DNA from: Methanothermus fervidus DSM 2088
Lineage (GTDB): Archaea; Methanobacteriota; Methanobacteria; DSM-2088; Methanothermaceae
NCBI GenBank assembly: GCA_000166095.1
Contig: CP002278.1
Coordinates: 1,200,001 to 1,232,000, forward strand
DNA length: 32,000 nt
Direction of reading: 5' to 3'
In this document: piece after piece, positions 24,720 through 26,699 of the stretch
Layout of the letters: each line of letters opens with the position of its first letter
How positions within the stretch are numbered: the first letter of the stretch is position 1
Notes under the pieces: model-generated
Databases searched by the model: none
Told to the model about the DNA's origin: nothing
Seen by the model: the letters and a program-made list of their open reading frames with translations, nothing else
Translations under genes and position numbers: made by a program

Positions 24720-25853
24720 CTATTGAATGGTTTCTTTAATTTTTTTCAAGCGCTTACGCATCATCAATATTCTTTCCCTAGAATTCTTTGGACGTGGTTC
24801 ATTACAACCACAGATACATTTATCAAACTGTGGACATACAATATACTTGGCCTCATAACTATTTATCTCAATCCCAAATTTCTGTGCATTTTTAATAGCC
24901 CTTGTATTTGCCTCAGCTTTCCCTAAATACAATGGAGTTCTAGCTGAGGAGGATAAATATTCCTTATGTCTTGCCTTCTTTCTTTCAATTTTTCTTCTCT
25001 TTAAAATTTTTTCTGCAGGATCATTTAAATTTGGATCTCTAAATGGTATTCCCACATCACTTAAGGCTATCATTCTTTCATCATCAACATTAAGTTGTTT
25101 TTTTATGAGGGAAGGATTTGGGGATGCTATAGTCCCTCCACGTTTTCTACCAAATATAGGACCTTCCCCTATATAAAATCCCACTTCAATCATCCCAGAT
25201 CTTACTGGAGCAGCAGATGTATAAGTTGTTAAAATACTATTTTTATTCATAACCCTAATAACTTCATTGAAAAATTCAACAGTGTATAATTCTGGAGATC
25301 TTAAAGGACTATAAGCATCTAAAAATACCACATCATAATAATCAGATTTTAAATTTTTTATAACATCTCTTGCATCATTACAGAATACATTAATTTTTAT
25401 GTTTTTTCTCTTGTCTTTTGTTTTGTTGTCAATTTTTTTCAATACTCCCTCTTCATAAAGTTTCTTTTTATATACAGTTTTAATAAGCTTGTGAGAATCT
25501 ATGGGACTTGGTATTAACGTTGCTAACAATAATACTTCTTTTGATATTTCAATCATGTCTATTTTTAAATTATTTTTCTTTTTATGAATTAATGCAGCAG
25601 AATTATAACCCAATCCTGAACATATGTCCAAAACTTTGAGTTTTTCTTTTTTTAATACTTCAATAGGTTTAACAAATTTTTCAAATGATTCTGTAATTGC
25701 ACCATGGATTGTATGCATCGTTTCATTAAAATTAGATTTAACTGTATATGAACCATCTTTAGTCTTAATTAAATATTTCATTAATTTACCTTTGACGTTG
25801 TAACCTTCTAGATACTTCTTCAGTAATTTGGAGACTCTACTGTCTAATTTCAT
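24720..25853 (-). CDS. MnmC2/DUF752-like SAM-dependent (tRNA U34 aminomethyl-type) methyltransferase with a basic, Cys-rich C-terminal extension
   Basis: LIKTKDGSYTVKSNFNETMHTIHGAITESFEKFV resembles the start of the MnmC methyltransferase domain. VLDICSGLGYNSAALI is SAM motif I, and VFLDAYSP is present. The extension (about residues 265-377) is Lys/Arg-rich and contains CPQFDKCICGC. The specific substrate is inference. Confidence 0.6.
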   Translation of the reverse strand: MKLDSRVSKLLKKYLEGYNVKGKLMKYLIKTKDGSYTVKSNFNETMHTIHGAITESFEKFVKPIEVLKKEKLKVLDICSGLGYNSAALIHKKKNNLKIDMIEISKEVLLLATLIPSPIDSHKLIKTVYKKKLYEEGVLKKIDNKTKDKRKNIKINVFCNDARDVIKNLKSDYYDVVFLDAYSPLRSPELYTVEFFNEVIRVMNKNSILTTYTSAAPVRSGMIEVGFYIGEGPIFGRKRGGTIASPNPSLIKKQLNVDDERMIALSDVGIPFRDPNLNDPAEKILKRRKIERKKARHKEYLSSSARTPLYLGKAEANTRAIKNAQKFGIEINSYEAKYIVCPQFDKCICGCNEPRPKNSRERILMMRKRLKKIKETIQ

Positions 25854-25888: not shown

Positions 25889-25938
25889 TCAGTATTTCTT
25901 TTTCATCATCAAAATTCAGATAGCGAAATGTTCATCAT
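25889..25938 (-). ncRNA. Candidate archaeal C/D box sRNA (2'-O-methylation guide)
   Basis: The minus strand reads gc-ATGATGA-acatttcgctat-CTGA-attttg-ATGATGA-aaaagaaata-CTGA. This gives perfect C and C' boxes (RUGAUGA) and perfect D' and D boxes (CUGA). The D' guide is 12 nt, the loop 6 nt, the D guide 10 nt (short), and the core 50 nt. It is intergenic, 36 nt upstream of the methyltransferase start, on the same strand. Confidence 0.6.
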
Positions 25939-26003
25939 GCTATTATAGTTTATATTAGTGAATTAATAATATTTTTTCAAATAAAACTTTTTTGGGGATT
26001 ATA

Positions 26004-26699
26004 GTGATAATTTCTCATTTTTCAGTAAGTGACAAGATAACAATTTTAGTTGCTAGATGTAATTTTAAATGTAAATATTGTTTTTTCAAACCTTTTAGAG
26101 AGATAGATATAGATGTAGAAAAATTAATAAAAATCACTAAAAAATTAAGAAAGCAATTTAAATTAAATAAAATCATGATTGCAGGTGGAGAACCTACTTT
26201 GGAAAAGGACCTGCCTGAATTTGTAAAATTATTAAAAGAGAATAATTTTTATGTTATAATTTCAACTAACGGATATTATTTATGTGAAATGTTGCATAAA
26301 CTAGAGGCAGATGAAATTCATATTGATTTAAAAGCATTGGATAACAAGATTCATAAAAAGTTAACAGGCTCATCAAACAAAAAAATTTTGAAATGCATTG
26401 AATACATAGGACTAAGAAAAAATAGGCTACCTTTTAGAGTAGAAGTATGTACTGTGTATATTCCTGGAATTGTTGAAATCAATGAAATAAGAAATATAGC
26501 TAAATTTCTTAGTAAGTGGGATTTACACTATAGGATAACTGGTCATGTGCCAGTTACTTTAAATGTTCGTAGGCCTACTAGAGATGAATTATTATTTGCT
26601 AAAAAGGAAGCTTGTAAATACCTATCTAATGTTACGTCTTCACTAGATTTTAAAAGACATAAACCTTCACAAATCAAGATTAATCCTGAGGAGTTGTGA
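26004..26699 (+). CDS. Radical SAM protein (small activase/QueE-like size class)
   Basis: It carries a CX3CX2C cluster motif (ARCNFKCKYCFF), the SAM-binding IAGGEPTLEKD, and ISTNG. The track start is a TTG at 25992. The GTG at 26004 lies 6 nt after GGGG and is my preferred start; the start is uncertain. Confidence 0.75.
   Translation: MIISHFSVSDKITILVARCNFKCKYCFFKPFREIDIDVEKLIKITKKLRKQFKLNKIMIAGGEPTLEKDLPEFVKLLKENNFYVIISTNGYYLCEMLHKLEADEIHIDLKALDNKIHKKLTGSSNKKILKCIEYIGLRKNRLPFRVEVCTVYIPGIVEINEIRNIAKFLSKWDLHYRITGHVPVTLNVRRPTRDELLFAKKEACKYLSNVTSSLDFKRHKPSQIKINPEEL

Follow-up and report, generated by a model that had tools for sequence, protein, structure and literature searches.

A 50-nt element in the genome of Methanothermus fervidus DSM 2088 is, with high probability, a functional gene for an archaeal box C/D small RNA (sRNA) that carries a D′ guide for nucleotide C2040 of the 23S ribosomal RNA. 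The element lies within a 138-nt divergent intergenic region of the window, by which we mean the whole 32,000-nt stretch of DNA analysed here (contig CP002278.1, positions 1,200,001–1,232,000), and its C/D motif is read directly from the sequence of the minus strand, running from 25938 to 25889 (Table 1). The M. fervidus genome is a single contig of 1,243,342 bp with 31.6% GC and two rRNA operons, and its rRNAs are 62–64% GC; the genome paper lists only 50 RNA genes, with no C/D sRNAs annotated (PMC3035299).

The four consensus boxes, the 12-nt D′ guide and the 50-nt core that had been described in the original prediction are all exact in the sequence, and the box order C–D′–C′–D and core length fit the size of the class (about 50–60 nt). 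[quoted passage not shown] The register of C′ is ambiguous because of the tandem sequence GAUGAUGA: an alternative UGAUGA at 25911–25906 gives a D spacer of 13 nt and a linker of 3–4 nt. Spacers of the class typically have roughly 12 nt; the D′ spacer has exactly this length, the D spacer has 10 nt in one C′ register and 13 nt in the other, a departure that is a point against a functional reading, and the sibling sRNAs of this genome have spacers of 9 to 13 nt. The terminal stem consists of three weak pairs that are thermodynamically negligible on their own, which counts against a functional reading; its offset is the same as that of the GGC/GCC stem in 23 homologues, and the Rfam snoPyro_CD alignment pairs the identical bases. 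The element has no intrinsic RNA fold (z = 0.59), as expected for the C/D class.

Table 1 Features of the sRNA locus and its neighbourhood (window coordinates)
Feature	Position	Strand	Remarks
tgtA, archaeosine tRNA-guanine transglycosylase, 654 aa	22744–24708	−	TIGR00432
MnmC2-like SAM methyltransferase, 377 aa	24720–25853	−	PF05430 at 1.4e-29
Terminal stem, 3′ half (UUA)	25888–25886	−	Partner UAG, 25942–25940
Box D (CUGA)	25892–25889	−	Read directly
D spacer AAAAGAAAUA, 10 nt	25902–25893	−	A-rich
Box C′ (AUGAUGA)	25909–25903	−	Read directly
D′–C′ linker (AUUUUG)	25915–25910	−	Read directly
Box D′ (CUGA)	25919–25916	−	Read directly
D′ guide ACAUUUCGCUAU, 12 nt	25931–25920	−	Pairs with 23S 2036–2047; N+5 base C2040
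Box C (AUGAUGA)	25938–25932	−	Read directly
Terminal stem, 5′ half (UAG)	25942–25940	−	Partner UUA, 25888–25886; 3 bp
Candidate TATA/BRE AAAAGUUUUAUUUG	25991–25978	−	Predicted; top 0.3% of genome background
Radical-SAM protein, 235 aa, divergent gene	25992–26699	+	Reaches no NCBIfam cut-off

The D′ guide forms a contiguous duplex with positions 2036–2046 of both 23S rRNA copies (GUAGCGAAAUG), comprising 10 Watson–Crick pairs and one G·U pair. Counted from box D′, guide positions 2–11 are Watson–Crick paired, position 1 is the G·U pair and position 12 an A·C mismatch. Under the N+5 rule, the nucleotide opposite guide position 5 is methylated; here the predicted site is C2040, which lies inside the duplex. 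The original prediction had foreseen the target and the G·U pair and had estimated about nine Watson–Crick pairs; the actual pairing is better, and exceeds the complementarity of at least 9 bp to a stable RNA that it had set as a minimum. The 23S target that it had given (GAAAUUCC) is the E. coli form, and M. fervidus 23S rRNA instead reads GUAGCGAAAUGC, which pairs better with the guide. The base named for methylation was also the right one, namely the C of GUAG-C-GAAAU, which had been written as AUAG-C-GAAAU.

Alignment with the E. coli 23S gene equates C2040 with E. coli C1934, and the numbering was validated by the E. coli sites U1911, U1915, U1917, U1939, C1962, G2251 and U2552, all of which fall on the expected bases. 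The segment carrying C2040 lies between the hairpins of helix 69 and helix 71, both visible in the alignment, so that the earlier placement near helix 70/71 had the right segment and needed only this refinement. In archaeal 23S rRNA, conserved sites of predicted methylation are reported to cluster in helices 68–71, at the subunit interface, making this region a hotspot (PMC4644070; PMC7994747). When the guide was shuffled, 3 of 300 versions equalled its score (p ~0.01), so the guide match taken alone is modestly significant. Judged by its pairing, the D′ arm should very likely direct 2′-O-methylation of 23S C2040 (E. coli C1934). Within the duplex, 23S position 2046 (genome position 24719) is a G in M. 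fervidus; its E. coli equivalent is U1940, and a U occupies this position in E. coli, in three Methanocaldococcus genomes and in a Thermococcus metagenome-assembled genome (MAG).

In an AT-rich genome, boxes as short as UGAUGA and CUGA might have come together by chance in AT-rich intergenic DNA, a reading to which we assign a negligible probability. A strict four-box regular expression matched 15 times in the 1.24-Mb genome and not once in any of 10 Markov-2 random genomes, which effectively refutes it; against it, too, stand the covariation of guide and target and the first rank of the locus in a genome search with an independently built model, both set out below. The functional reading is joined by a sibling family in the same genome. 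A genome scan with the Rfam model RF00095 gave 16 sub-threshold matches, the best at 39.4 and the studied locus at rank 10, and added four loci that the strict expression had missed; the C/D sRNA genes of M. fervidus, the studied locus among them, number about 17–20. Most siblings have a match of 9.5–12 bp to 16S rRNA, 23S rRNA or a tRNA in at least one arm. The genome also encodes the core proteins fibrillarin (PF01269), Nop5 (PF01798) and two L7Ae-family members (PF01248 twice), all above cut-off.

At Rfam gathering thresholds, tRNA is the only family found in the window, and no C/D family is reached for any M. fervidus sRNA; since all the C/D sRNAs of this genome fall short, these thresholds are uninformative here. 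Below them, the top matches of the element are archaeal C/D families: RF01122 (sR39), at 22.6 bits against a gathering score of 50 and with the 5′ half alone aligning, and RF00095 (snoPyro_CD), at 22.7 bits against 45. An Rfam scan had been proposed as a check on the original prediction; in its outcome, archaeal C/D families stand on top, and the missed gathering scores count against the functional reading. The assignment to C/D box sRNAs itself is borne out by these families and by the siblings in the genome.

Several siblings are of interest in their own right. The D′ guide of the sRNA at 1111359–1111410 (−) is directed to a site 14 nt away from C2040, namely 23S C2026 (E. coli C1920, in the 3′ strand of helix 69), and its D arm is a 9-nt AT-rich sequence without a target. 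Two candidates, at 875190–875243 (−) and 90664–90721 (−), carry Shine–Dalgarno-like D guides (AAAGGAGGUGAA and AGGAGGUGAAAU, respectively). The first of these forms 10 Watson–Crick pairs, through guide positions 2–11, with the 3′ end of 16S rRNA (AUCACCUCCUUA) and would place a 2′-O-methyl group on a C within the anti-Shine–Dalgarno sequence; the second has a mismatch adjoining box D. At 226489–226594 (−) two sRNAs abut with a 1-nt overlap, the CUGA of box D running into the next AUGAUGA, and at 556374–556456 (+) three guide modules have boxes in common. These tandem C/D units suggest polycistronic sRNA transcripts.

Comparison across genomes gave further evidence on the D′ guide. A permissive Rfam scan showed the consensus D′ guide of sR39 to be nearly identical to that of the element. 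An exact scan for the module of C box, guide and D′ box (TGAnGAnnATTTCGCTAnCTGA, with guide position 11 a free N in the search pattern), covering one genome per species across 185,579 species, returned 35 matches, of which Thermococci and Methanocaldococcaceae account for about 30. Downstream, the archaeal copies have a full half of C′ box, 12-nt guide and D box, together with a GGC/GCC terminal stem; the bacterial matches lack such a half. A covariance model (R1), for which 23 distinct archaeal copies but not the M. fervidus locus were used, placed the studied locus first in a genome search (28 bits, E ~1e-4); the runner-up took its score from boxes and stem alone and has unrelated guides.

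Guide positions 2–11 are invariant in this family apart from the A-to-C difference between the relatives and M. fervidus at position 11, and positions 1 and 12 vary. The confinement of variation to positions 1 and 12 agrees with the reported 10-nt substrate limit of archaeal C/D RNPs, the two halves of which are reported to be functionally independent (PMC7229835). At position 11, all 23 relatives have A, and the relatives' 23S rRNAs that were sampled (six Methanocaldococcus copies and one Thermococcus MAG) have U opposite (GAAAUUCC); in M. fervidus a guide C stands opposite a G of the 23S rRNA (GAAAUGCC). Given an A:U pair in the relatives and a C:G pair here, the guide has followed its target, a pattern that points to selection for the pairing, and we regard this covariation as the strongest point among the comparative evidence.

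Closer to M. fervidus, whose GTDB order holds its genome alone, a search of 200 Methanobacteria genomes with two mismatches allowed gave 5 matches, nothing real among them, as against 4 in a reversed-pattern control. A metagenome scan with the exact 22-mer gave zero matches. Both negative outcomes count against the functional reading, as does the lack of synteny described below. The conservation looked for at the outset is thus present in about 30 genomes of Thermococci and Methanocaldococcaceae and does not rise above the control in the 200 Methanobacteria. None of the five flanking proteins occurs at any of the 35 guide-carrying loci. Because synteny is lacking and most of the identity falls within the constrained parts, descent from an sR39-like gene and convergence on one site cannot be separated. 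Neither the guide string nor the target string occurs in the supplement to Dennis et al. 2015, where species abbreviations such as Mka and Iho denote organisms outside Thermococcus and Methanocaldococcus. One Thermococcus MAG has two sRNAs (L020:6641–6662 (−) and L039:7769–7790 (−)) with the same D′ guide to 23S C1934 and different D guides (GAGCCCUGCCGUUG and GUACCCUCGCAA), which would reflect either redundancy or the shuffling of guides between sRNA genes.

The D arm presents a different picture. That this short A-rich guide may be non-functional had been suspected from the start, and the target search agrees: its best match to rRNA or tRNA is 6 bp, and rRNAs, tRNAs, neighbouring genes and GC-rich regions yielded no target, with the 5S, SRP and RNase P RNAs covered through the GC-rich filter alone. 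Its 138 perfect sites genome-wide, none of them in a GC-rich context, compare with 23–124 for shuffled guides. In the relatives the corresponding guide is a 12-nt CUACCCUCGCA or CUACUCCCGCA, with the pattern CUAC(C/U)C(U/C)CGCA, and the Methanocaldococcus form makes 11 Watson–Crick pairs with positions 565–575 of the 16S rRNA of M. fervidus, the molecule on which the match was assessed. No second M. fervidus sRNA with this 16S guide was found in a C/D context. The D arm is probably a decayed remnant of a 16S-directed guide, kept as a spacer between the k-turn modules.

Such decay may have gone further, leaving the whole locus a silent or decaying relic of a dual-guide sRNA that has lost its function and persists only because the loss is recent. 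The drift of the D arm to a genome-like AT composition and 10 nt, the missing 16S-directed guide, the weak terminal stem and the failure to find an orthologue in the class (200 Methanobacteria genomes) would all suit this reading, but we consider it unlikely: the four boxes have all stayed perfect in a genome of 31.6% GC, guide positions 2–11 are all Watson–Crick paired, and the guide has followed a U-to-G change in its target, implying selection after divergence. A layout with a single good arm is, moreover, not peculiar to this locus, since 4 of the 15 regular-expression loci, the studied one included, have one good guide and, in the other arm, an AT-rich sequence without a target (among them the two loci with the shortest D spacers, of 9 and 10 nt), and activity in vitro is reported for half-mer C/D RNAs (PMC7229835). 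We therefore continue to favour a functional sRNA with one working guide.

The element was originally placed 36 nt upstream of a methyltransferase–tgtA operon on the same strand; the order and the shared strand stand, that strand is the minus strand, and 35 nt separate box D from the ATG at 25853. The MnmC2-like protein scores 84.6 bits against the NCBIfam model tRNA_MNMC2, under its cut-off of 136, and tgtA reaches 630.6 bits against the TIGR00432 cut-off of 350 and has TGT, C2 and PUA domains. On the other side, the element starts 53 nt from the annotated start of the divergent radical-SAM gene. The best matches of that protein (MoaA, NrdG and W-cofactor maturase-like) are all far under threshold, and its start may instead be the GTG at 26004, which has GGGGAU ahead of it.

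We scanned the minus strand from 26010 to 25840 with a TATA weight matrix derived from 12 M. fervidus tRNA promoters; a scan for sigma-70 promoters and terminators was set aside as not applicable to archaea. Top-1% scores were confined to two overlapping positions of one TATA-like site, against an expectation of about 0.3–0.5 false positives: the better of the two, the candidate TATA/BRE, lies some 49 nt upstream of box C, and the same matrix found zero top-1% sites between the sRNA and the ATG. A plus-strand TATA-like box at 25949–25956 suits the radical-SAM gene. From this arrangement it is plausible that the sRNA is co-transcribed with the MnmC2-like/tgtA operon, and the placement of the TATA site fits, weakly, processing of the sRNA from the operon's 5′ leader. 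Among the siblings, no TATA at a fixed distance was evident, and 10 of 17 loci lie at most 70 nt upstream of a same-strand ORF. At a genome coding density of 93.6% (PMC3035299), such closeness to genes is expected.

The position of the element could also mean that it acts mainly in cis, as a k-turn in the 5′ leader through which L7Ae binding would control the MnmC2-like/tgtA genes, its likeness to an rRNA guide being secondary. Its location on the strand of the operon, 35 nt before the ATG, and the upstream placement of the sole top-1% TATA-like site are compatible with this; an L7Ae RIP-seq study proposes translational regulation by L7Ae in archaea (PMC5539422), and reporter expression fell where an sRNA gene overlapped the 5′ end of an adjacent ORF (PMC7994747). 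We nevertheless hold it to be very improbable, because the guide is kept across orders in unrelated gene contexts and covaries with the 23S rRNA, both of which rRNA targeting explains and the operon does not, and because the closeness to a gene is what the coding density predicts and more than half of the siblings show. A dual role, in which a guide released from the MnmC2-like/tgtA leader would be combined with an effect of L7Ae, Nop5 and fibrillarin assembly on the survival or translation of the mRNA, strikes us as quite improbable too; if true, it would couple the supply of an rRNA-methylation RNP to the expression of tRNA-modification (archaeosine) enzymes in a hyperthermophile.

For the preferred reading, an rRNA-methylation guide, we envisage the following course. 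Transcription would probably begin at a promoter upstream of box C, possibly yielding the same primary transcript as the MnmC2-like/tgtA genes, which would be trimmed to the protein-protected core. By analogy with the family, the resulting RNA of about 55 nt would first take up L7Ae, both at the C/D k-turn and at the C′/D′ k-loop, and then a Nop5 dimer and two fibrillarins. Guide positions 2–11 would pair with 23S rRNA positions 2037–2046, and fibrillarin would methylate the 2′-OH of C2040, in a single-stranded part of domain IV between the helix 69 and helix 71 hairpins; the D arm would serve as a structural spacer without a target.

The finding leaves current understanding unchanged, and its value is mainly one of annotation: a hyperthermophile genome without listed C/D sRNAs gains a well-supported guide for rRNA methylation. 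As far as guides and targets can indicate, three orders of hyperthermophilic Euryarchaeota probably share 2′-O-methylation of the cytidine equivalent to E. coli C1934. The locus also offers clean natural cases of two kinds: a guide that has followed a base change in the rRNA that it targets, and a dual guide with one arm decaying and the other kept.

Set beside sR39 and the sRNAs of Thermococci and Methanocaldococcaceae, the element has the same box order, and its D′ guide core AUUUCGCUA stands in the same register before CUGA; shared core and shared register specify the same target nucleotide, E. coli C1934. The sR39-like D′ guide AAUUUCGCUA aimed at 23S C1934 recurs here with a compensating A-to-C change at position 11, opposite the G of M. 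fervidus 23S rRNA, and the Methanocaldococcus homologues have an AU-rich D′–C′ linker of similar length to that of the element. The differences lie in the D arm, a 12-nt GC-rich guide in the relatives and a 10-nt A-rich spacer without a target here; in the terminal stem, GGC/GCC in the relatives and UAG/UUA here; and in the gene neighbourhood, where the relatives' loci and the element have nothing in common. By guide and target the element is kin to the sR39-like sRNAs, and by the gathering threshold of RF01122 it is outside that family. Against RF00095 it aligns over its full length (model positions 1–58), with the four boxes and the terminal stem aligned, and the threshold of that family appears to have been set for the GC-rich sequences of Pyrococcus. 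A parallel is offered by single-guide or half-mer C/D RNAs, in that one guide works and the other k-turn module serves assembly alone; in the element, both k-turn modules are intact and canonical, as is typical of archaea. With every sequence feature of a guide present in its D′ half, the element is best read as an unannotated addition to the known class of archaeal C/D guide RNAs.
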